From Candidatus Iainarchaeum sp. (lineage in GTDB: Archaea; Iainarchaeota; Iainarchaeia; Iainarchaeales; CSSED10-239), in contig CALBUD010000036.1 of NCBI GenBank assembly GCA_937968065.1, positions 1 to 13,022 on the forward strand: a DNA stretch of 13,022 nucleotides, in the 5' to 3' direction. This document shows, in pieces, positions 55-12,769 of the stretch; position 1 is the first letter of the stretch; every line of letters begins with the position of its first letter. Both the position numbers and the translations under genes were made by a program. The notes under the pieces were generated by a model. The model saw only the letters and a program-made list of their open reading frames with translations. It was not told the DNA's origin and ran no database searches.

Positions 55-819
55 TCATATTTTTTCAATTTCTCTTCTTAAAACATTATAATTTGCATCA
101 TAAGTCAAAGGATCAAACAAAAATAAATCAAATGGTTTTTTTGATAGATCTATAAAACAATTTCTATCATCAAGATCAATATCTCTTAAACCTTTTTTTT
201 TAAGTATTTCTTTTAGTTTAGAGAATTTTTGATTAATTTTTTTAACATCCTCTACATTAATCTTTTTTTTATTAACAACATCTCTTACAGTTGGAAGATA
301 AGAGAGTTCATAAACAATAAATGATTTTATAAGTTGTCTATGAAAAGGAAATTTTTTTCTATCTAAATAACTATCAAAAGCGAAATGAGGTTTTATTATT
401 TTAAAACCAATTTCTCTTGCATCTTTTTCAATTAGTCTTAAAGCAATTAATTCTTCAGTTAAAGATAATTCAACTTTATCTCTAGTTTCTTTTATAAAAA
501 ATCTTACTGGTTTTTTTTTATTAATAATTAAAACAAAACCATCACTTGCAAAAGAAGAATCTGTTCTTTTTTTATTAATAATTTGATTTGTAACTTTTAA
601 TATCTCAAATCTGTTTTTTTCATCAACAAATCTTTTTTCTTTTTTGTTATTTGATAAAAAATTAACAGCTTTAATAATTCCAGGATTTTCTCTTAATAAC
701 TCTCTTGCAAAATTACTATATACTATTTTTTTACCACCATACCTATTAGTCATGCTTTCTTTATAAGTATATCTATTAGGATTTTTTATAACTTTTACAT
801 TTCTTTTTAAAAGAGGCAT
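55..819 (-). CDS. hypothetical protein (possible atypical protein-kinase-like fold; motif-level only)
   Basis: 254-codon ORF with ATG at 817-819 and TGA at 55-57. It starts 29 nt downstream of the hisS stop, so co-transcription is plausible. I recognise no family with certainty. By eye there is a kinase-like motif order: SDGFVLII, FFIKE (K110), EELIALRLIE, hinge-like IVYEL, a catalytic-loop-like D-L-D-D-R-N (aa 215-220) and LFLFDP (D236). Confidence 0.6.
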   Translation of the reverse strand: MPLLKRNVKVIKNPNRYTYKESMTNRYGGKKIVYSNFARELLRENPGIIKAVNFLSNNKKEKRFVDEKNRFEILKVTNQIINKKRTDSSFASDGFVLIINKKKPVRFFIKETRDKVELSLTEELIALRLIEKDAREIGFKIIKPHFAFDSYLDRKKFPFHRQLIKSFIVYELSYLPTVRDVVNKKKINVEDVKKINQKFSKLKEILKKKGLRDIDLDDRNCFIDLSKKPFDLFLFDPLTYDANYNVLRREIEKI

Positions 820-2224: not shown

Positions 2225-2300
2225 TGGGGTCATAACCGGGATTTGAACCCGGGCCAGAGGCTCCACAGACCTCTATGCTAACCACTACACTATTATGACC
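2225..2300 (-). tRNA. tRNA-His (anticodon GTG) with encoded G-1 and 3' CCA
   Basis: The reverse complement reads GGTCATAATAGTGTAGTGGTTAGCATAGAGGTCTGTGGAGCCTCTGGCCCGGGTTCAAATCCCGGTTATGACCCCA. It folds as a cloverleaf: 7-bp acceptor GTCATAA/TTATGAC, an extra 5' G pairing with C73 (the His identity element), D stem GTGT/GCAT, anticodon stem GAGGT/GCCTC with loop CTGTGGA, and T arm CCGGG-TTCAAAT-CCCGG. It ends in CCA. Confidence 0.9.
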
Positions 2301-2728: not shown

Positions 2729-2998
2729 TTATAATTTACTCTTAAATTCTTTACCAACTTTAAATGAAACTGTTTTACTTGCAGCTATCTTCATAGACTT
2801 TCCTGTTTGTGGATTTCTACCCATTCTAGCAGCTCTTTTCTTAACTTTGAAAGTACCAAAACCAACTAATTGTAATTTTCCATCTTTTTTTACAATAGTT
2901 TTCATAGCATCTAAAGTAATATTAATAAACTCTTCAGCTTTTGATTTTGATAAATCTGTTTTCTTAACAACAGCTTCAACTAATGTACTTTTGTTCAT
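2729..2998 (-). CDS. hup: HU/IHF-family DNA-binding protein (bacterial-type histone-like protein)
   Basis: 89-aa ORF. MNKSTLVEAVVKKTDLSKSKAEEFINITLDAMKTIVKKDGKLQLVGFGTFKVKKRAARMGRNPQTGKSMKIAASKTVSFKVGKEFK matches the HU signature GFGTF-x-V-x-x-R-x-A-R-x-GRNP-x-TG-x-x-x-x-I-x-A-x-x-x-x-x-FK-x-GK along its full length. Confidence 0.92.
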   Translation of the reverse strand: MNKSTLVEAVVKKTDLSKSKAEEFINITLDAMKTIVKKDGKLQLVGFGTFKVKKRAARMGRNPQTGKSMKIAASKTVSFKVGKEFKSKL

Positions 2999-3208: not shown

Positions 3209-3571
3209 TTACTTGCGTTTCTTTGCTGCTGCTTGACGAGAAATTGTTGAAGTTCCCCAAAAGAAAACAGACACAAGTCCAAACCCTAAGAAAAGATATG
3301 CCATCATTATAGCACTTGTAAGATAAAGATATTTATAAACTAAAAAATAAGCAATAACACCAGTTACAATAAATGTTAATATATGTTTTTCTCCAAAAGC
3401 TTGAGCTGTGTTTTCATATATAAAAAAAATAATAAGTCCCATGATAACATATCTAACAAGAGGAAACATTGCCATAGCTCCAGGAACTATTAATACAGCT
3501 ATAACAGAAATAATTAGTATTTTTACAATTAATGGAAGTGCACCAATAAATCCTTTTTGATTATTTACCAT
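3209..3571 (-). CDS. small integral membrane protein (about 4 predicted TM helices), unknown function
   Basis: 120-aa ORF starting 3 nt after the stop of the preceding gene. It has four hydrophobic stretches (FIGALPLIVKILIISVIAVLIV, FPLVRYVIMGLIIFFIY, ILTFIVTGVIAYFLVY, AIMMAYLFLGFGLVSVFFW) and a basic C-terminal tail RQAAAKKRK. I recognise no family. Confidence 0.75.
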   Translation of the reverse strand: MVNNQKGFIGALPLIVKILIISVIAVLIVPGAMAMFPLVRYVIMGLIIFFIYENTAQAFGEKHILTFIVTGVIAYFLVYKYLYLTSAIMMAYLFLGFGLVSVFFWGTSTISRQAAAKKRK

Positions 3572-3574
3572 AAT

Positions 3575-3946
3575 TTATCTACCTGGTGGCTTTGGTCCCA
3601 TTTTTTTAACCAATTTATTTCTTGCAGCAGCATCTGTTGCTCCTGGTGCTCCATGAGTTTCCATTTTTCTACCCATCATCTCTTCTGGAGAACCACCAGC
3701 ACTAATAAAGAAAAAATCAACAAATATTCCAGCAACTCCTACAGATAAAAGAATATAAAAAACATATCCTACTCTAAAAACAGGCCAAAACAAAAATATC
3801 ATAACAATAACTGTAAGACTTATAAGCACTAAAGCTAAAGTGTTATGAGTAACTCTTCTTCTAATAAAAGCTATGATTGCTAATATTAAAAATATCTGTA
3901 AGATAAAATCAAAATCTTGTAAAAAACCTAAATAAATGTTTAACAT
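3575..3946 (-). CDS. small integral membrane protein (about 3 predicted TM helices) with a charged Gly/Pro/Ala-rich C-terminal tail, unknown function
   Basis: 123-aa ORF starting 14 nt after the giant gene stop. Hydrophobic stretches are ILQIFLILAIIAFI, LALVLISLTVIVMIFLFWPVF and VGYVFYILLSVGVAGIFVDFFFISA. A soluble tail follows: GGSPEEMMGRKMETHGAPGATDAAARNKLVKKMGPKPPGR. I recognise no family. Confidence 0.75.
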   Translation of the reverse strand: MLNIYLGFLQDFDFILQIFLILAIIAFIRRRVTHNTLALVLISLTVIVMIFLFWPVFRVGYVFYILLSVGVAGIFVDFFFISAGGSPEEMMGRKMETHGAPGATDAAARNKLVKKMGPKPPGR

Positions 3947-3960
3947 ATTTTTTTCTTTTT

Positions 3961-6900
3961 TTAATCTATTTGGATAGGATTATTTATTGTGTTACAAATA
4001 AAATCTTGAGAATAATTTTCTTGTATCTCTAAAAGTTCTTCTTCTGTAAAATTAACTTCTTCTTCAACCCATTTAACATAAGTGTTTGTTGGTGATTTAA
4101 AGATACATGCTTTCTCATCTTTAATATATTCAAAGATACCTTTTATTGTTTTTAAATTTTCAAGATCAGAACCAATAACATGTGCTTGAGAGCTAAAGGT
4201 TATATCTTTTGTTCCTTGAAGATTGTTCTTTGAAAATATTTTTGTATATTCATTATTATTAAATCCTGTTGTTTTAAAAATAACAGAGTCTATAGGTAAA
4301 TCATTAACGATTGGAAGATATAACATTGCACTTATACTGTTTGTATCATTAATATTATTTGTTTCTAAAACAAATCTGTTTCCTTGAATGCTGCTTGCAT
4401 ATAATTGATCTGTTAGATAAGAGATGTTATTATCCCATCTTAAAAAGGAACTATCAAAACCACTTATAAGAGCATCTAAAGGATTATCTAATAGATAAAG
4501 ATTATATGAAAAGTTAGTTTCTAGAGGGCATCCAATATTTGCATATAAAGGTATAGGATAAGAAGGGGTATATTCAAGTTGTACAAAATCTTGTATTTTT
4601 CTAAGATCTAATATTTTTCCTTGAGAGTTAATTGTTTGTTTAATAGCTCCTAGATGATTGTTATTTGTAAGAACTAAAGTTGTTATAGGATCTTCTTTTA
4701 AAATATTTTCTAAAGTAAATGATGGATTAATAGAAATTTCATCTCCTTCAGCAGAAGAAATAGAAATTCCATACCCTAAACTTTCTGAGTTATTTAATCT
4801 ACCATTTAATGGCATATAATGGAAAACACTAAGTTCTGATGAAGGTATACTTCTTTCAAAAGATAATCTTATATCTATTCTTTTATCATTTAGATCATTC
4901 TTATAACTTACATCTTCATCTCCATAAACTTTAACTTCATAAACTCCTGGTCTAAAAACAGATTCTCCTGAATCTAAAGAAATTTTAAAATTATCATCTA
5001 TAACTGCTTGTTCTGTAAATAAATCTTGATTTGTAGGTTTATTAAATTTAGCATAAATACTTAAAGAATCATTCTCTCTATAATCTATAAAATCTTTTAA
5101 AAGATCTTTTGAGATTCCATCATTCATTAATTTTATATAGAATGATTCTTGAGATCCATCTTGTATCTTATGGAATATTGAAATTAACATTTGAAGAGAA
5201 TCACAAGCATATTTTTCACTCATGTTATCAAGAGAATCTCCAATACATTTAGTCGTCCAAGATTCAGTTTCTTCTCCCCAATTAAAAAAGACTTTTGGAA
5301 GAGCATCTTCTCCTGTGTAACAAACATCTTCTTCTTCTTCACAAAATCCTAATATAAAGATGTCTTCACCTAAATAAGTTCCACCAACACCTACACAAAA
5401 TTCATTTTCAAGATCACTTTCATAATAATCCATATCTATTTTTTTAATCTCATAACTTAAAGATTTTTCTTTTTCAAAAGATTTATCAAGACCTTGTAAA
5501 TTAAAACTAAATATTGTGTTTGTCTCTTCTGAAAAAACAGTTTCTTCTAAAGAAGAATAGTTTGAATAATATCTTAAAGTTTTATTTATAAATTCTTGAG
5601 AAAGTAAAGTACTTCCTGAAAAATTATCTACAAACAAATATTCTTGAGAAGGATTTAATGAAACTTCTGATAATAAATCAACATCATAATTATTTGCTAA
5701 GTTTCTTAAGTTATATGTTTTTCTACTATCACAATTTGTATTTGAACAAAATATAGTTAAAACATTACTTGTATTTTCTGTAATTTCAACTAATGAATCT
5801 TTATCAAATACTTTAATATTAAAAATTTCTTTTAAAGAAACAACAGTTTCATCTTTCTTTAATTTAAAATCAATAATTATAATTTCTTCTTGTGAAGGAT
5901 AACTATTAAAGTTTTCATTAATTTTAAAATTTAAAATTATTTCTAAATTATTTAAAGGTTGATTTGAAAAGTTTATAATTGAAGCTTCTAAAGCATCAGA
6001 ATCTATAAAACTTGGAAGAGAACTAAAAGATACTTCTTCTAAAATAATATCAGATGTGCTTGTTGAAAATAAATATTTTAATTCTATTTCTGGATTTAAA
6101 TCTTTTATAAGCTCTAAACTATGGTTGTTATTCTCTTGGTTATAAAAAACTCCTTTTTTAGGGGAAGGGAAAGAAACTTCATAATTTATCTGTCCAAGAT
6201 TAATTGCAAAAACATTAGAAAAAACATCTAACATCTGTGTTATGCTTGGAAATTTAAGTTCATTTCTAAATAAAGCTTTTGTACTTAAATTACCTTCAGT
6301 TGGAAGAGTATCTGATAAAAATATTTTTGTAAAAATACTTGTGTTCTTAGAACTTAAAGACCTTGGAATTGGAGAGTTTTCTTCTAAAAGATATTCATTA
6401 ATCTCTTCAACTTCAAAGTAAGATACTTCATTCGGTATAAAAGAAATATTTTCTAAAGAAGGAACAAGTGTATTTTTCTTTTCAATCTCATATTCTTTAC
6501 TAACCTCTCCTTTAACAAATCTATCATTAACCTTAAGATAATAAGTTGAAAAGTTAAGAGGTTGTCCTGGAACCATAAATCCAGAATTAATTATTTTTTC
6601 TTTTCTTATAGTATTTCCAGGAATTCCAGCACTTGCATCAAATATAAATGAAAAGGTTACTTTTTTGGACATATCTTGTATATTAAAAATAAGCTCTTGA
6701 ACATTTAAGATACCTTGTTGGTTTGTTTTTCCTAAAAGAATATTATCTTCAACTCCTTGTATCTGATATTTTATAGAAACATCATTTACAGGACTTCCAA
6801 AATCATCTAAGACTTTAAAAGAAAGATTGTTTGAACCTACAAATATTTGTTCTGGTGAAATATCTATTAAAAACTTTTCATCAGAATTATAAGCATATAA

Positions 6901-9900
6901 CTTTGTATTAATTAAAGGAAAATTATTTAAAATATTTGTAATCATTCTTGGTTCTGAATAATTTGCAATTTCAAAAAAACCTTCTGGTTTAAACAAAGTA
7001 TATTTTTTAAGAAGATATCCTCTTTGAGCATCTATATTTAATAAAGAATAATTAGTATCTTCAACAGATATATGATTATAAATATTATTTATATTTCCTG
7101 GAGAACTATCAAGAGAAGAGGTATATCCATAACTTAAATATTTAAGATTATTATTTGTGTTGCTTGAAGTTTGTAGAATATTTCCTGTTCTTGAATCTGA
7201 TTTTAGATAAATATATTCTAAATCATATTTATATGTAGAATTAATATCTATCTTATGTCCATCTAAAAAAGAAGGAAGCACACTGTTATTTATATCTTTT
7301 ATCTTAGTATTATAAATATAATCTGAGTTACTAAACGGTATTTGGTATTTATTTGTTTTAGCATAAAAATATCCTTCAGGATAGAATGGTATCTGGTTCC
7401 AAGAAGTTGGAAGTTCAGGATCATAACTATAGGTGCTTCCATAAATAACACTTAAAGCTCTATAATTAATAATATAATTTTCAATTGGTGCTATTGGTGT
7501 TTCTTTAAACTTAATGTTTAATGAAAATTCAATTATTTGTGGTTTTAATTCTCTAAAATCAATTTCTAACCATTTATAATTATTAAGATTATAATCTAAA
7601 GATTTATCTAAATTATAATTATTTTGGAAAAGAGTTGTATTAAAATCAGGAACATGCTCTCCTGAAAATCTATATCCTCTTTTAACCTCTATATCTTGTG
7701 ATAAAATATCTTCTGAAACAAAAGAAACTGAATCTTCATTTATGAAAATTTTATTTCCAGCTCTAATATGTGCTAACTTTATTTCTGAGTCTTTAAGACA
7801 AGAGATGTATTTTAATTTTATTCTATATTCTTTAGATAAACCATTTTCAATAAAATCAATATTATTAACTACAAAGGAACCTGTTTTATCAAACAAACCA
7901 AGAACTTCTATTTTTCCATCACTACAAGAGGTTAAAGATAATAAAGTTATTTCTTTAAAGATTTCAACTCCAGAAACTAAATTAATAAGTTCTGTTTGAT
8001 AAGTTGTATAACCATCAGCAGAAATAACAGCATAAACTTTATTTATGTTCTCTCCAGTGAAGGTATATTGTTTATTATTATCTACATCAACTGTTACATA
8101 TTCATTTATTTGTAAATGTTGAGAAGTATAAAAATTAATATCATATGAGATGTTAGGATTTACTTTTAGATTTAATGTTTTAGGAATATCTAAAAGATTT
8201 ACATCTAATTTTAAGAAAGAATTAACATCAAGTCTTTCAATTTCTGAAACACCTTGTTTATCAAGAACAGAATGTATTGCATAAGCATAATATTCTCTAT
8301 TTGCTCTTTGCATTGTAAAATTAACATCTCCAAATTGATTTGTATATTTAGGTTCTTGATTTACTAAAACAAAATCATCTTCAAATTCTCTATAAAGATA
8401 CACTCTTGCACTATTTACATTAATCTCTTGATTTTTAACATTTACACCAATAACTCCAGAATTAAGTTCTGAAGAATATTCAAGATAAACAATTATGTTT
8501 TTATCAATTCCATCAACTAAAACTGGATCTGGTTGAAGATAACCGTTTTCTTCAGTATTAAGAACTCTTACTCTATAAGTATAAAAGTCTAAAACATCAA
8601 AGATTGCATGACTTTTATTTCTTAAAACACTGCCAAGAGAAGAATAACTTTCATTTGAATCTTTTAATTTATATTCTAAAGTAATATCTGCAAAAACAGG
8701 TTCTTCAGTTTCACTATCTAATAAAGTAACATCAATATATCCTGGAATACCAATACTACAAGAACCATCTTCATTAAAATGAAGGAATGGTTTTAAATGT
8801 TGGTTTGAACAATCGATTTGGTTATTTATACAAAATGGTTTATATCTATCTTGAGAACAATCAAAGTCAAGTAAATCATCAATTGTGAATAATATAAATT
8901 CTACATTTGTTGTGTTATCTTTAACAACAGAAAAAGGTCCTTTTCTTGGATAGGTTAGATAACCTTCTTTTGCTGCTGTTACAAGATATTGTTTAGGTTC
9001 TAGATTAAATTGATTAACACCATAAATATCTGTTGTTGTAGAATCAAATGGTAATAATGGTGTTGATTGAGAATAATTATAAACTGTTAATTGTGCATTT
9101 GAAAGAGGATTATTTGAAATGTTTTTAACACTAATCCCTAAGGTTCCTTTATCATTATTTATTCTTATTAAAACTATTTTATTATTTTCTGGAACTACTT
9201 GATTTGTTATAGAATTAAATTGTGTAGAGGTTACAGAAACTCTTAAAGAACCACATCCTGCAGGAGTTTTAACTAAAACTTTTCCTGTAGATACCAAGGT
9301 TGTTCTAGGTTCTGGTTGTTTTTCTGTATTTGTACATGAAAAGGTTGTGTTTAATGTAACATTATTTATTAAAATATCATTGTTTTCAACAAAAATAATA
9401 TCTCTTTCTTGTGCTGGGTTTACTGGTATTATTGGATTTTCAGTATCAATGGTTAAAGTTATAATATGTCTTAAATTATTTTTATTTAATTTAAATTCAT
9501 ATTCTTTTGTGTTATAATGTTCTTTTGAAACAATTAATTTTACATTTTGTTTTCTAGATTTTAAATCTCTAAAAATAACTTCACCAAAAATATTTGTTTC
9601 AAGAGAAGAAACTTCTTTATCTTTTATTTGTAAACTTACAAGAGCTTCACTTACTGGTGTGTTCGATTGATCATAAACTTCAACTGATATTGTCCAAGTT
9701 TTTGAAAAAGATAAAGTTCCTGAGATTATAAGGTATAATAATAATACAAGTAATATTAAAAACAAAATAAAACTTGGAAATTTTTTATCAATTTTATCTG
9801 TAAGTTTATTTATTGGTAAAATTTTACTAATACCATCTACACAACTATAATAAATATCTTCAAAAAAGAAATAAATCATTCTAAAAAAATCTTTTATTTT

Positions 9901-10308
9901 TGTTAAAAAACCGACTTTAGAAACTGAGGTTAGATTTTTCTTTTTTTCTTCTTTCTTTAAAGGTTCTTCTTTTTTTATAGGTTCTTCTTTTTTTTCTTCT
10001 TTCTTTAAAGGTGCTTCTTTCTTTTCATCTACAGAAATTTTTTCTTTTTTATTTTTAATAGAGTATGATAATTCTTTTAAGATTTGTTCTTTTGAAAGTT
10101 CAGTTGTATTTTTCTTTAAAGTATCTTTTAAAGGTAACTTATTATCTTGTATCATCTTTACAACTAAAGAAGTTACTTTTTGATTATATCCTTGAGATAA
10201 AACAGCATCTTTAATCTCATCTATTGTATATTTTTGTGTTTTATTAGATAGAAGATCATATAATTTTTCTGCATCTATTTTATCTTTTGATTTTTTAAAT
10301 AATGACAT
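3961..10308 (-). CDS. giant (2115 aa) single-pass membrane-anchored surface protein with repeated beta-sandwich-like modules, unknown function
   Basis: An uninterrupted 6348-nt ORF in a genome where stop triplets are very frequent. The N-terminal 176 aa or so are Lys/Glu-rich and predicted cytoplasmic. A single hydrophobic span FPSFILFLILLVLLLYLIISG (aa 177-197, nt 9718-9780) is preceded by DKIDKK, which fits positive-inside topology. The remaining 1900 aa or so form an Asn/Ser/Thr-rich ectodomain. It contains at least five carboxypeptidase-regulatory-like/PEGA-like patterns, for example ISVEVYDQSNTPVSEALVSL...IFGEVIFRDL...VKLIVSKEHY, GISVKNISNNPLSNAQLTVY...YLVTAAKEGY, GVNVKNQEINVNSARVYLY...FGDVNF and FKVLDDFGSPVNDVSIKY...TNQQGILNV. 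I see no catalytic motif. Confidence 0.9.
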   Translation of the reverse strand: MSLFKKSKDKIDAEKLYDLLSNKTQKYTIDEIKDAVLSQGYNQKVTSLVVKMIQDNKLPLKDTLKKNTTELSKEQILKELSYSIKNKKEKISVDEKKEAPLKKEEKKEEPIKKEEPLKKEEKKKNLTSVSKVGFLTKIKDFFRMIYFFFEDIYYSCVDGISKILPINKLTDKIDKKFPSFILFLILLVLLLYLIISGTLSFSKTWTISVEVYDQSNTPVSEALVSLQIKDKEVSSLETNIFGEVIFRDLKSRKQNVKLIVSKEHYNTKEYEFKLNKNNLRHIITLTIDTENPIIPVNPAQERDIIFVENNDILINNVTLNTTFSCTNTEKQPEPRTTLVSTGKVLVKTPAGCGSLRVSVTSTQFNSITNQVVPENNKIVLIRINNDKGTLGISVKNISNNPLSNAQLTVYNYSQSTPLLPFDSTTTDIYGVNQFNLEPKQYLVTAAKEGYLTYPRKGPFSVVKDNTTNVEFILFTIDDLLDFDCSQDRYKPFCINNQIDCSNQHLKPFLHFNEDGSCSIGIPGYIDVTLLDSETEEPVFADITLEYKLKDSNESYSSLGSVLRNKSHAIFDVLDFYTYRVRVLNTEENGYLQPDPVLVDGIDKNIIVYLEYSSELNSGVIGVNVKNQEINVNSARVYLYREFEDDFVLVNQEPKYTNQFGDVNFTMQRANREYYAYAIHSVLDKQGVSEIERLDVNSFLKLDVNLLDIPKTLNLKVNPNISYDINFYTSQHLQINEYVTVDVDNNKQYTFTGENINKVYAVISADGYTTYQTELINLVSGVEIFKEITLLSLTSCSDGKIEVLGLFDKTGSFVVNNIDFIENGLSKEYRIKLKYISCLKDSEIKLAHIRAGNKIFINEDSVSFVSEDILSQDIEVKRGYRFSGEHVPDFNTTLFQNNYNLDKSLDYNLNNYKWLEIDFRELKPQIIEFSLNIKFKETPIAPIENYIINYRALSVIYGSTYSYDPELPTSWNQIPFYPEGYFYAKTNKYQIPFSNSDYIYNTKIKDINNSVLPSFLDGHKIDINSTYKYDLEYIYLKSDSRTGNILQTSSNTNNNLKYLSYGYTSSLDSSPGNINNIYNHISVEDTNYSLLNIDAQRGYLLKKYTLFKPEGFFEIANYSEPRMITNILNNFPLINTKLYAYNSDEKFLIDISPEQIFVGSNNLSFKVLDDFGSPVNDVSIKYQIQGVEDNILLGKTNQQGILNVQELIFNIQDMSKKVTFSFIFDASAGIPGNTIRKEKIINSGFMVPGQPLNFSTYYLKVNDRFVKGEVSKEYEIEKKNTLVPSLENISFIPNEVSYFEVEEINEYLLEENSPIPRSLSSKNTSIFTKIFLSDTLPTEGNLSTKALFRNELKFPSITQMLDVFSNVFAINLGQINYEVSFPSPKKGVFYNQENNNHSLELIKDLNPEIELKYLFSTSTSDIILEEVSFSSLPSFIDSDALEASIINFSNQPLNNLEIILNFKINENFNSYPSQEEIIIIDFKLKKDETVVSLKEIFNIKVFDKDSLVEITENTSNVLTIFCSNTNCDSRKTYNLRNLANNYDVDLLSEVSLNPSQEYLFVDNFSGSTLLSQEFINKTLRYYSNYSSLEETVFSEETNTIFSFNLQGLDKSFEKEKSLSYEIKKIDMDYYESDLENEFCVGVGGTYLGEDIFILGFCEEEEDVCYTGEDALPKVFFNWGEETESWTTKCIGDSLDNMSEKYACDSLQMLISIFHKIQDGSQESFYIKLMNDGISKDLLKDFIDYRENDSLSIYAKFNKPTNQDLFTEQAVIDDNFKISLDSGESVFRPGVYEVKVYGDEDVSYKNDLNDKRIDIRLSFERSIPSSELSVFHYMPLNGRLNNSESLGYGISISSAEGDEISINPSFTLENILKEDPITTLVLTNNNHLGAIKQTINSQGKILDLRKIQDFVQLEYTPSYPIPLYANIGCPLETNFSYNLYLLDNPLDALISGFDSSFLRWDNNISYLTDQLYASSIQGNRFVLETNNINDTNSISAMLYLPIVNDLPIDSVIFKTTGFNNNEYTKIFSKNNLQGTKDITFSSQAHVIGSDLENLKTIKGIFEYIKDEKACIFKSPTNTYVKWVEEEVNFTEEELLEIQENYSQDFICNTINNPIQID
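9933..10026 (-). repeat. in-frame Lys/Glu/Pro low-complexity repeat within the cytoplasmic N-terminus of the giant protein
   Basis: The peptide is EKKEAPLKKEEKKEEPIKKEEPLKKEEKKK. At DNA level the 19-mer ttcttctttctttaaaggt occurs twice (9946-9964 and 9994-10012), 48 nt or 16 codons apart. A degenerate copy lies between them. Confidence 0.6.
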
Positions 10309-10330: not shown

Positions 10331-12769
10331 TTATCTAAAGATTGGTGTGAATGGAAAATTAAAGCTTTTACTTCCATTATCGCTAGTTATTGTTCCATCT
10401 AATCTATAATTTTGATAATAACAATATAATTCTTTATCTGAAAGATTCATTAAAGGATCATAATACCATTCAAGAACCTCTCCTGTTACCTTATACTCAT
10501 AAAGTCCTAATGTTTGGTTATACTCACCAACAATCACTTCTTTATTTTTATATAAAGCATCATATGGAGCAACAACAAAAGGATTTAAAGAAGGAATCTT
10601 TGTAAACTCAGAATTGTTTTTTGAATAAAATATAAATAAATTATTTTGATTTATCTGTCCAGGAAATGTTGAATAAAGAACATAGTCTTTGGAAAATTTA
10701 TATCCTGTGTTATCAGGCATAATATTTATTTCTTTAAGATCATAATAATCACATAATGAACAATTTGGATTATCAGTTAAAGTCTTATTAATGTTTGAAG
10801 GAATTCTATCTTTAAAATCATCTTGGTTTGCAGATTTTATAGTGACTGCTTTAGTGGTATAATTTAGATTTGAAGGAGGTTTTTGTATATAACAAGAATC
10901 TTGAACAAGAATTGAACGATTATCTAAATTTTGTTCTGTATACTCAACATCTGATAGATCTTCAAGACATATATTATAGTTAGAAATACATGCAGAACAT
11001 TCAGGTATTCCATTTAAACATTCTTGATTATAAGAAATACAATCTTCTCCTGAATAAAGAGTACAACAATCTTCACAAACCCCATCATCATCTAAACACT
11101 GATATTTATCATCTTCACATTGTTGTATTTTAGAATCTCTTTCTTTTATATAAGGTAAATTTTCTGTTTTAACTTCTTGTGGAAGATAACTTCCTGTTTG
11201 TAAAGTTTTTATAAATAATTGATTTGAATTAATATTTTCTTTATAAGTAATTAAATTTATTTTCATATCTTTTGTTCTATTTATTAAATAATCAAATCTA
11301 AGATTAAGTGTTTCATTTAAATTTCCATTTGGTTGATCTTGTCCTGTTAATCCTTTATAACCAAAGAAACCATCTTTTACATCTATATTAAAAATATGAT
11401 TATTTTCAAGTAATTTAATATTGATGTCTCCATTATTTATTCCTCCTGCATTTCCACCCTTACCTTTATATCCATCATTTGTGTGTTGGTGTTTACGTCC
11501 TCCGTTCCCACCCTCTCCTGCGTCTAAAGATAAATTAAAAGTCCCATTATTAATTACTTTTGCAATTTGAGAAATATTTATAGAACCGCCATTTCCACCA
11601 AATCCACCATGTACAGTATTTGATGTACCAGAGGCCTTTCCTCTATCTCTTCCAGTATCTCCACCATCTCCTCCATTTCCAGGAGTTAATTTTAGTTCTA
11701 ATTTTGAATTTTTATTATTAATTATAGTATTTACATTAAAAGATAAATTTCCTGCATCTCCACCAAATCCACCATGACCAATATCACCTACATATGGTTT
11801 TGATTTTTTTTGATCAAGTCCTTTCCCACCAGGTCCAGCATTACCAGTAGATAAATTAAAATTTAATTCTTTTAAATTATTTATTTCATCTATAATTATT
11901 TCAACATCTCCAGAGTCTCCTCCTCTTCTACCATCTAAATGACCTGTAGAACCAGGATTTCCAACCTTTCCATTTCCTGTTTTAATATCTAAATTAAAAG
12001 TACCTTCATTTTTTATATTTTCTAATTGTAGTTTAAAATTTTCAGAATGTGCAGTTCCTGGATTCATTAAAACCTCACCAATTGTTGGAAAATCAAAATA
12101 TACATCTTCATAAGTAGTTCCAGAATATTTAAAATCTAAAGTACTATTTTCTTTTATAATCACATCTTTTAATTTAACTTCAACAGTGTTATTTGTTTCT
12201 TTGTTTAAAATTAAAACATCTTCTTTAACATTTAATTCTGTAAAACCTTTTACAACTAAATCTAAACTTAGATCAAATTTTTTATTAAAAGATTCATTAG
12301 TGTTTAAAACAGATAAAGTTATATCTTTTCCATTTGAAATTAAAGAATCAATTCCTTGAATTTTAAATTCTTGTTTTTGTTCTTTTATCTCAAGTTCTAA
12401 ATCAGCTCCAAGCTCTAAATTAATTTTTTTATCAGAACAAGTATTATTAAAAACTAAATCATTACTTTTTTTTATTGAAAGTGGATTAGGATTAGTGTTT
12501 TGAGAAATACAACTATTTACACAACTATTATAACCATCAAAAAAATCAGTTGGACAAGAAGAAACACAAGAATCAAGAGAAGAATAAACATCTGAAGTTT
12601 TTAAAATATAAAAATAACAATCCTCTCCAGAACATCCTTGAAAAATAATTGTTTCTTGTACAGGGGTTCCTCGTAAACTTAAATTACAAGTTTCAAAAGA
12701 AAAAACATATGATTGTATAAATATAATAAATAATATTAAAACAATTGTTAAAATAATTTTTTTTATCAT
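10331..12769 (-). CDS. secreted 812-aa protein with Gly-rich tandem repeats flanked by Cys-rich modules, unknown function
   Basis: The N-terminus is signal-peptide-like: MIKKIILTIVLILFIIFIQSYVFS. There are 8 Cys in aa 28-111. Gly-rich repeats of about 55 aa span aa 246-480. There are 10 Cys in aa 551-601 (QQCEDDKYQCLDDDGVCEDCCTLYSGEDCISYNQECLNGIPECSACISNYNIC). There is no C-terminal hydrophobic anchor; the protein ends FNFPFTPIFR. Its stop codon lies 22 nt upstream of the giant gene start. Confidence 0.9.
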   Translation of the reverse strand: MIKKIILTIVLILFIIFIQSYVFSFETCNLSLRGTPVQETIIFQGCSGEDCYFYILKTSDVYSSLDSCVSSCPTDFFDGYNSCVNSCISQNTNPNPLSIKKSNDLVFNNTCSDKKINLELGADLELEIKEQKQEFKIQGIDSLISNGKDITLSVLNTNESFNKKFDLSLDLVVKGFTELNVKEDVLILNKETNNTVEVKLKDVIIKENSTLDFKYSGTTYEDVYFDFPTIGEVLMNPGTAHSENFKLQLENIKNEGTFNLDIKTGNGKVGNPGSTGHLDGRRGGDSGDVEIIIDEINNLKELNFNLSTGNAGPGGKGLDQKKSKPYVGDIGHGGFGGDAGNLSFNVNTIINNKNSKLELKLTPGNGGDGGDTGRDRGKASGTSNTVHGGFGGNGGSINISQIAKVINNGTFNLSLDAGEGGNGGRKHQHTNDGYKGKGGNAGGINNGDINIKLLENNHIFNIDVKDGFFGYKGLTGQDQPNGNLNETLNLRFDYLINRTKDMKINLITYKENINSNQLFIKTLQTGSYLPQEVKTENLPYIKERDSKIQQCEDDKYQCLDDDGVCEDCCTLYSGEDCISYNQECLNGIPECSACISNYNICLEDLSDVEYTEQNLDNRSILVQDSCYIQKPPSNLNYTTKAVTIKSANQDDFKDRIPSNINKTLTDNPNCSLCDYYDLKEINIMPDNTGYKFSKDYVLYSTFPGQINQNNLFIFYSKNNSEFTKIPSLNPFVVAPYDALYKNKEVIVGEYNQTLGLYEYKVTGEVLEWYYDPLMNLSDKELYCYYQNYRLDGTITSDNGSKSFNFPFTPIFR
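11330..12034 (-). repeat. coding tandem repeats (about 4.5 units of about 50-55 aa) alternating beta-strand-like INN-x-hxhxh segments with Gly-rich loops
   Basis: Units aligned by eye: (1) NEGTFNLDIKTGNGKVGNPGSTGHLDGRRGGDSGDVEIIID; (2) INNLKELNFNLSTGNAGPGGKG...GHGGFGGDAGNLSFNVNT; (3) IINNKNSKLELKLTPGNGGDGGDTG...VHGGFGGNGGSINIS; (4) VINNGTFNLSLDAGEGGNGG...GKGGNAGGINNGDINIK; (5) NNHIFNIDVKDGFFGYKG. The DNA 17-mer ccaccaaatccaccatg, which encodes HGGFGG, occurs at 11595-11611 and 11760-11776. These are exactly 165 nt or 55 codons apart. Confidence 0.7.

Follow-up and report, generated by a model that had tools for sequence, protein, structure and literature searches.

Tandem beta-hairpin and glycine-triplet units, predicted to form polyglycine-II helices, in a putative surface protein of Candidatus Iainarchaeum

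Introduction

Domains of packed glycine-rich polyproline-II (PPII) helices are rare, with about ten experimental cases: Obg, springtail antifreeze proteins (AFPs), acetophenone carboxylase, phage gp38 and related tail proteins, and ALK/LTK. Few members of this class are known, most of them single domains, and the reviews cited here mention no archaeal example (bioRxiv 10.1101/2023.11.25.568672; PMC13243192). Here we describe a repeat in an 812-aa secreted protein (P0001) of Candidatus Iainarchaeum sp., which we read, with moderate confidence, as a tandem beta-hairpin/polyglycine-II (PGII) repeat that would act as a rigid scaffold or as a platform for binding. The gene was taken from a list of open reading frames (ORFs) with their translations and lies at 10331..12769 on the minus strand (stop codon included) of the window, that is, the whole stretch of DNA analysed (contig CALBUD010000036.1, 13,022 nt, ~22% GC), in a tightly packed string of minus-strand genes.

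In the N-domain of Obg/CgtA (PDB 1LNZ, 1UDX, 4CSU), a strand, the motif G-[DN]-G-G-x-G, a connector of ~10 residues, the motif G-G-x-G-G-x-G-G-[DN] and another strand follow one another as they do in our repeat, and this Obg segment has been solved as part of a two-layer bundle of six PPII helices (PMC8409303). Obg differs in being a cytoplasmic, ribosome-binding protein with a single unit set and a fused GTPase, whereas P0001 is secreted, carries 4-5 tandem units and has no GTPase. The collembolan PPII AFPs (7JJV, 3BOG, 2PNE) share the Gly triplets with one non-Gly residue per turn, their helices being antiparallel and joined by short turns; unlike P0001, in which hairpins alternate with the Gly motifs and the exposed residues are polar or charged, they are all-PPII proteins of 81-126 aa with no strands and an Ala-rich ice face. 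The 'PGII sandwich' of phage S16 gp38 (PDB 6F45) and the glycine-rich domain of ALK/LTK are rigid extracellular PPII lattices that display variable binding loops (PMC13243192). No sequence or fold match to these proteins was obtained, and they are not tandem beta-hairpin/PGII repeats; they are proposed here as a functional analogy for the Iainarchaeum domain.

Results

An old tandem repeat in the glycine-rich region

An earlier note on this DNA had reported glycine-rich tandem repeats at 11330-12034, corresponding to aa 246-480 of the 812-aa protein. We aligned aa 230-520 with itself, and the best off-diagonal Smith-Waterman score was 197, versus 66.8 +/- 11.4 (maximum 103) in 30 composition-preserving shuffles (z ~11), with lag peaks at 53-58 and 105-110. 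Units were cut at predicted strand boundaries, and unit-versus-unit profiles were compared with hhalign on a 40-sequence family alignment. The results showed that U1-U4 match one another over whole-unit length with 96.1-98.6% probability (E 3e-9 to 1e-15), that U5 matches U1-U4 with 82-93%, and that U6 matches weakly. The count of about 4.5 units and the period of about 55 residues given in the earlier note were therefore correct, as the self-alignment lags also confirm. The repeat domain extends slightly beyond the span first noted, from aa 244 to ~531 (window 11177-12040). These findings indicate that the tandem repeat in aa 244-531 is real and old, and that it comprises four full units, one degenerate unit and one strands-only unit.

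The five units U1-U5 are 45, 53, 55, 51 and 41 aa long and are followed by the 43-aa U6; all coordinates within this gene are on the minus strand. U1 (aa 244-288; 11906..12040) consists of strands 244-254 and 257-263 and then a Gly-rich segment, matches U2-U4 with 96.1-97.8% probability and scores 32 bits against a hidden Markov model (HMM) of the unit. U2 (aa 289-341; 11747..11905) scores 41 bits and matches U3 with 98.6% (E 1e-15); its hairpin VEIIIDEINN-LK-ELNFNLS is followed by motif 1 (GNAGPGGKG), a connector and motif 2 (HGGFGGDAG), and G309, G314, G315, G317, G333, G337 and G340 are invariant in 8-9 homologues. In U3 (aa 342-396; 11582..11746) the two motifs read GNGGDGGDT and HGGFGGNGG on either side of the connector, and in U4 (aa 397-447; 11429..11581) they read GEGGNGG and GKGGNAGG, with the connector RKHQHTNDGYK and its conserved K426 and H429 in between. 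The degenerate U5 (aa 448-488; 11306..11428) has kept its hairpin (strands 448-456 and 459-465), and its Gly motifs have decayed (GFFGYKGLTG). U6 (aa 489-531; 11177..11305), with strands 489-497, 502-509 and 516-523, is probably a cap.

We then asked how the number of units varies among relatives, a comparison that the earlier note had proposed. The unit HMM found 3-4 units in nearly every family member, and an identical 805-aa orthologue was present on 41 contigs in a cluster without length variants. Copy number is thus fixed across the family, not variable, and a contingency locus of the variable-number tandem repeat type was rejected for this reason. The repeat is an old internal duplication.

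At the DNA level, an exact repeat of 18 nt (TCCACCAAATCCACCATG) occurs in U2 (11759..11776, encoding H332-G337) and in U3 (11594..11611, encoding H387-G392), 165 nt apart, and both copies encode HGGFGG. The earlier note had taken a 17-nt version of this repeat to fix the period; the exact repeat and its spacing are confirmed, but its length is 18 nt and it sets a single spacing only. Given the codon bias of the window (GGA 0.60, GGT 0.34, CAT 0.93, TTT 0.91), the probability that the identical hexapeptide is written with the same codons is ~0.04, and the 18-nt repeat is a by-product of the peptide repeat. Apart from this 18-mer, DNA identity between units is low, and Tandem Repeats Finder (TRF), run over the DNA of the region, found no tandem array except 2.8 copies of the 9-nt ATCTCCACC. 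At the DNA level, the repeat is ancient. A local GC enrichment had also been noted, and the rise is real (0.30-0.34 in the region vs 0.21-0.25 around it), but it is no independent signature: GC at third codon positions is 0.072 in the region vs 0.073 outside it, and the difference vanishes once Gly codons are removed (GC 0.205 vs 0.221), so that Gly codons account for the whole of it.

Unit consensus and glycine pattern

Gly makes up 22.6% of aa 246-480 vs 4.0% of the rest of the protein, and Asn makes up 13.6% of the region. Column statistics were calculated from 105 units of 37 proteins that are 24-45% identical overall. In the consensus, a first strand, [IVL]-x-[LFI]-x5-[ILV]-N-x-I-x-N, leads through a (Y/N)-(G/S) turn into a second, x-[LFI]-N-[IL]-[ND]-[LIV]-x-[SAT], and hydrophobic residues alternate along both. 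The Gly part follows as G-[ND]-G-G-x-G-G-x-(G), a variable connector of 8-15 aa, and G-G-x-G-G-x-[GSA]-G-[DN]. Within the motifs, most positions are occupied by Gly in 84-99% of units and two positions in 64-73%, and the 9-sequence alignment contains 17 invariant Gly residues. D375 is conserved, and Asp or Asn is frequent just past each Gly motif.

Both Gly motifs are 8-9 residues long, and in both of them the residues other than Gly are polar (Asn, Asp, Lys, Ser, His) and recur with a strict spacing of three. With such spacing, each turn of three residues has two faces made of Gly alone and a single exposed one, which is the pattern of packed polyglycine-II helices. The GxG/GGx triplets by which the glycine-rich PPII bundle class is recognised are accordingly present in the sequence and conserved over the 105 units. 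Indels in the family are restricted to the connectors, and these stretches of 8-15 residues are the truly variable, exposed parts of the domain.

Structure prediction and fold searches

We predicted the structure of the full-length protein and of aa 240-540 alone with AlphaFold2 (AF2). The full-length model had a predicted local distance difference test score (pLDDT) of 77.6 overall and mostly >90 across aa 244-540, and the domain model reached a pLDDT of 89.2 and a predicted template modelling score (pTM) of 0.87, indicating that aa 240-540 is predicted to be ordered, where the earlier note had named disorder as a result that would speak against its structural idea. In both models each unit contains a strand of 9-11 residues, a turn of 2 residues (4 in U3) and a strand of 7 residues. 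After each hairpin come 23-34 high-confidence residues that DSSP assigns to neither helix nor strand, the DSSP program used being one that gives PPII helices no label. Low pLDDT is limited to connectors, at ~320-329 and 378-380. The solenoid with exposed Gly loops that the earlier note had suggested therefore stands in part: the beta segments are ordered and stacked in the models, but the 'loops' are two conserved Gly motifs rather than generic loops.

Foldseek searches of the full-length model against the PDB returned nothing at E<0.001. The top match was the two-partner secretion (TPS) beta-helix of EtpA (E 0.019), the springtail antifreeze protein 7jjv came third (E 0.038), and the weak matches (E 0.019-0.9) included the EtpA and HMW1 TPS domains, tailspikes and SufD. 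With the domain model, 7jjv was the sole significant PDB match (E 3.4e-4 and 2.3e-3, prob 0.97-1.0), followed by the snow-flea AFP 3bog (E 0.45) and by beta-helices from E 0.49. The hairpin-repeat part combines high-pLDDT Gly segments that are neither H nor E in DSSP with a match to 7jjv at low TM-score, and we take this match to support PPII-bundle geometry locally but not a global fold in common. In the viral fold database BFVD nothing significant was found (none at E<0.06), so no link to phage gp38-type domains was obtained.

Family and known systems compared

A word-indexed database of 5.8 billion proteins contained just 8-9 full-length relatives. When 1.84 billion cluster representatives were searched exhaustively with an HMM, 81 matches reached E<=1e-3, 45 of them E<=1e-10 and 36 E<=1e-30, and the family comprises ~45 clusters at 50% identity. 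All relatives are unnamed or annotated 'hypothetical protein'. Those with a genome come from Candidatus Forterrea multitransposorum (complete, 839,632 bp), from metagenome-assembled genomes of Candidatus Iainarchaeum and from one uncultured archaeon, and these genomes belong to the phylum Iainarchaeota of the DPANN archaea. When the word-indexed database was queried again with the 40-sequence alignment, mostly Gly-rich bacterial proteins were returned.

No Pfam or NCBIfam model reached its threshold in scans of P0001 and its relatives. The repeat family is in that respect undescribed, as had been supposed, but its structural principle is already known from PPII bundles. The architecture has precedents in the 7jjv fold match and in the recurrent resemblance to the Obg N-terminus. 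GTP1_OBG (PF01018) was the commonest Pfam match, found in 9 of 40 members with a best E of 3.9e-4, and P0048, a divergent family member, scored 20.5 bits against profile positions 3-84 (cut-off 27). In sequence searches of the PDB, Obg led the structurally meaningful matches, with E 1.7-3.8 for the family profile and 0.19-2.2 for the 105-unit profile; the alignments pair strand B, motif 1, the connector and motif 2 with 'VxAGDGGNG...(K)GGPDGGDGGDGGD' of Obg. No GTPase domain was found by Pfam in the 40 family members. We take the Obg N-domain to be the nearest analogue known for the repeat and perhaps a distant relative of it, not the family to which it belongs. Among other Gly-rich models, Gly_rich (PF12810) matched none of the 40 members and Gly_rich_2 (PF21722) matched two, with a best E of 0.077, below threshold.

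The earlier note had set the repeat apart from RTX, collagen and PE_PGRS sequences, and motif searches and Pfam scans without a match agree. An RTX beta-roll (PF00353, HemolysinCabind) was rejected, since the motif search found three scattered GGxGxD strings but no nonapeptide, the self-alignment had no lag-9 signal, and none of 40 members matched the Pfam model at E<=10. The longest run of Gly at every third position covers 5 triplets and no Collagen Pfam match was found, which excluded a collagen-like triple helix; chlamydial Pmp repeats (PF02415) were excluded by the absence of any GGA[ILV] string and Pfam match. PE_PGRS was rejected as well, Pfam having found no PE domain and the Gly motifs being 8-9 residues long inside units of ~50 residues. 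The PGRS domains of PE_PGRS proteins are reportedly secreted or surface GGx repeats for which AlphaFold predicts PGII arrays (a 'PGII sandwich'); they differ in having a PE domain and a GGA/GGN tract of several hundred residues, in contrast to the regular 50-residue hairpin units described here, which are archaeal and not polymorphic in copy number. For the right-handed parallel beta-helix of the TPS type, the best matches had E 0.019 (full-length model) and 0.49 (domain model) at TM-scores <=0.22, and no Beta_helix, Haemagg_act or Pectate_lyase Pfam match was found. Beta-helix adhesins (EtpA, HMW1, tailspikes) are likewise elongated surface modules of stacked strands, but they are built of three-strand coils of 20-25 residues without conserved Gly triplets, and the matches to them were not significant.

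Similar modules in other secreted proteins

Modules of strands and Gly motifs with a period of ~50 residues were also seen beside MACPF, anthrax protective antigen (PA) domain 3, dockerin/cohesin, autotransporter and TPS domains. In P0011, P0014, P0070, P0090, P0093, P0097 and P0106 the Gly-rich modules are C-terminal to MACPF (with dockerin, cohesin, C-type lectin or Flg_new), and in P0064 the module follows a segment resembling anthrax-PA domain 3. The modules in these toxin-like proteins may represent an unnamed receptor-binding module. As a control for composition, reversed sequences were scored with the unit HMM and reached 22 bits at most; among the bacterial Gly-rich proteins only P0010 and P0103 exceeded this level, as did the divergent family member P0048.

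Layout of the 812-aa protein

The protein begins with a putative signal peptide or membrane anchor (aa 1-25, MIKKIILTIVLILFIIFIQSYVFSF; 12695..12769), in which KK precedes a hydrophobic stretch. The 8-sequence alignment shows no variation at V22 and F23, AF2 predicts a helix at 2-23, and cleavage of the signal sequence is inferred from the sequence. A Cys-rich N-terminal region (aa 26-112; 12434..12694) with conserved Cys 28, 68, 72, 83, 87 and 111 is modelled as mixed strands and helices. It is followed, before the repeats, by a Gly-poor stack of short beta-strands (aa 113-220; 12110..12433), for which DSSP of the AF2 model gives ten strands of 4-11 residues with pLDDT mostly 84-97.

Beyond the repeat domain lies a poorly conserved, Cys-rich helical linker (aa 541-610; 10940..11149), whose AF2 helices have pLDDT 42-75 and whose length is highly variable among homologues. 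The conserved C-terminal domain (aa 612-812; 10334..10936) ends in FNFPFTPxF and has invariant C626, C670, C673, Y759, Y788, F807 and P809. No family or fold match was found for aa 612-812, where AF2 confidence is patchy. The same domain also stands alone in the short database proteins P0032, P0049 and P0053.

Gene neighbourhood

The gene that starts 22 nt past the Gly-rich gene (3961..10308, minus strand) encodes a 2115-aa giant membrane-anchored surface protein with CarboxypepD_reg and Big_1 matches, an N-terminal Lys/Glu-rich (KKEE) segment and then a transmembrane helix. Within it, TRF detected a tandem DNA repeat at window 9942-10054 (minus strand; periods 18, 30 and 48, score up to 128), at aa ~85-122 of the protein; it encodes 'KKEE(P/A)(L/I)KKEE' and lies ~55 residues (aa ~123-178) upstream of the transmembrane helix. 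The translations show two small polytopic membrane proteins of 123 and 120 aa (3575-3946 and 3209-3571, minus strand) at the end of the conserved block, and their position and size are kept in the relatives' loci L001, L002 and L007.

The order of the block is ~1000 aa, ~2450 aa, a variable protein of 120-570 aa, the Gly-rich protein of ~800 aa, ~2140 aa, a 123-aa transmembrane protein and a transmembrane protein of ~118 aa, with gaps of 3-22 nt between block genes in the window. The full order is present in L001, L002 and L007, where the Gly-rich proteins are 24-42% identical to P0001, and the upstream part is present in L008 too, on a contig that ends just 3' of the gene. The giant proteins gave only faint CarboxypepD_reg, Big_1, MG4 and SpaA signals. 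The conserved Iainarchaeota block is probably an uncharacterised surface apparatus.

Downstream of the block, the window contains a tRNA-Arg, an HU gene, a tRNA-His, the gene of the histidyl-tRNA synthetase (HisRS) and one more ORF. The HU/IHF protein is of bacterial type (PF00216, E 1.3e-29; 2729-2998, minus strand) and occupies the same place beside the block in L001 and L002. AT-rich tandem repeats of 10 nt and 19 nt (TTTTTCATAA, TTTATAAACA) lie at 2536-2621, between tRNA-His and the HU gene. The tRNA-His (GTG; 2225-2299, minus strand) stands 72 nt upstream of HisRS (849-2153) on the same strand, and HisRS is near the block in the Forterrea locus L001 too. The last ORF, downstream of HisRS (55-819, minus strand), encodes 254 aa and has no Pfam family.

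Discussion

We propose that each unit of ~50 residues would consist of a tight hairpin (a 10-residue strand ending in a conserved Asn, a turn of the N-x-G type and a 7-residue strand) and two Gly-triplet motifs, G-x-G-G-x-G-G-x-G and G-G-x-G-G-x-G-G, joined by the variable connector of 8-15 residues. The hairpins would stack into a continuous beta layer that extends the Gly-poor stack of aa 113-220. The Gly motifs would form polyglycine-II (PPII-type) helices whose all-Gly faces pack against one another laterally, like those of the Obg N-domain and the springtail AFPs, giving a flat, rigid array of ~8-10 helices with the connectors and one residue in three (Asn, Asp, Lys, His) turned to the solvent. 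Architecture and synteny lead us to suggest a rigid stalk or display platform: the domain may be the stalk or binding platform of an 812-aa subunit within a surface block of two or three giant immunoglobulin-like proteins and two small membrane proteins, with the connectors and the every-third-residue face as its interaction surface.

This proposal is based on the repeat, its conservation, the order of its motifs, the prediction of segments that are neither alpha nor beta, the PPII-bundle fold match and synteny, from which we infer PPII geometry, packing into layers, surface location and a binding role. The location of the 812-aa protein on the cell surface and its part in binding are putative and follow from the signal or anchor sequence and the gene order.

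Several results weigh against the proposal. Both AF2 runs used a shallow alignment of 9 sequences. The 7jjv match has TM-scores of 0.34-0.49 on the target and 0.16-0.49 overall with an rmsd of 17-20 A, and it may profit from shared Gly composition because the Foldseek score mixes 3Di and amino-acid terms. In the single sequence, the Fourier power of Gly at period 3 was significant in one of four segments, which we attribute to the phase being reset across connectors, so that the pattern is clear at family level only. P0001 itself has no Obg Pfam match, and all Obg scores are sub-threshold (20.5 vs 27 bits; PDB E 0.19-3.8). Since reversed sequences reach 22 bits, links to bacterial Gly-rich modules are mostly inseparable from composition.

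We also considered a conventional beta-solenoid or beta-helix, in which each coil would expose flexible Gly/Asp/Lys-rich loops, possibly binding Ca2+ like RTX beta-rolls. Short stacked strands are predicted before and inside the region, TPS domains, tailspikes, pectate lyases and SufD fill the fold lists below the PPII match, and the frequent Asp/Asn after the Gly motifs, the conserved D375 and the three GGxGxD strings could be taken for cation sites. We nevertheless judge this explanation unlikely, because beta-helix matches have E of at least 0.019 for the full-length model and at least 0.49 for the domain, and no RTX nonapeptide, period-9 signal or HemolysinCabind match was found. Fixed Gly positions with strict every-third spacing in proteins 24-45% identical, at pLDDT >90, are unlike flexible loops, and the strands of a unit are just 2 residues apart, which is the geometry of a hairpin and not of a solenoid corner.

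Intrinsically disordered Gly-rich spacers usually change in both length and sequence. If the Gly segments were low-complexity spacers of this kind, the AF2 confidence and the fold match would be artefacts of composition, and the high Gly (22.6%) and Asn (13.6%) contents, the 9-sequence AF2 alignment, a Foldseek score that counts amino-acid identity and the low pLDDT at connectors 320-329 and 378-380 fit that picture. Against this, Gly is position-specific and motif lengths are fixed in ~40 diverged homologues with indels in connectors only, unit number is fixed, and the identical protein on 41 contigs has no length variants in its cluster, so that we regard disorder as very improbable. The flat glycine array might instead be a functional surface that binds ice, minerals or crystals, given that the best structural matches are 7jjv and then 3bog and that relatives come from cold subsurface and groundwater metagenomes, to judge from record titles such as that of the CG_2015 Forterrea genome. 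We give this idea hardly any credence: at every third position the array exposes Asn, Asp, Lys or His, whereas the ice-binding faces of springtail AFPs are Ala-rich and uncharged (PMC8409303), and P0001, a large multi-domain subunit encoded in an operon of giant surface proteins, is unlike the small free AFPs.

A tandem beta-hairpin/PGII repeat in an archaeal surface protein, as modelled here, is new within the PPII-bundle class and is not a new category. Everything beyond the sequence pattern is prediction. PPII-helix domains are in demand for protein design, where they would supply a third kind of building block; a conserved modular array in which they alternate with hairpins would add a new architecture and would suggest a way of lengthening such arrays unit by unit. 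A bolder reading, which we consider doubtful, is that the unit is the first open-ended repeat module with polyglycine-II helices as its building block, sharing descent with the single-copy Obg N-domain and widely used for receptor binding in archaea and bacteria, on DPANN surfaces as well as fused to MACPF, to anthrax-PA-type toxins and to cellulosomal proteins. If true, this would reveal an unnamed, widespread fold family of direct use in PPII-based protein design.

To our knowledge, the cell-surface machinery of Iainarchaeota, DPANN archaea with genomes of 0.66-0.84 Mb, is essentially uncharacterised. Within this phylum the operon of giant surface proteins is conserved and always includes the 812-aa protein as one of its subunits, and the block plausibly serves cell-cell or surface attachment.

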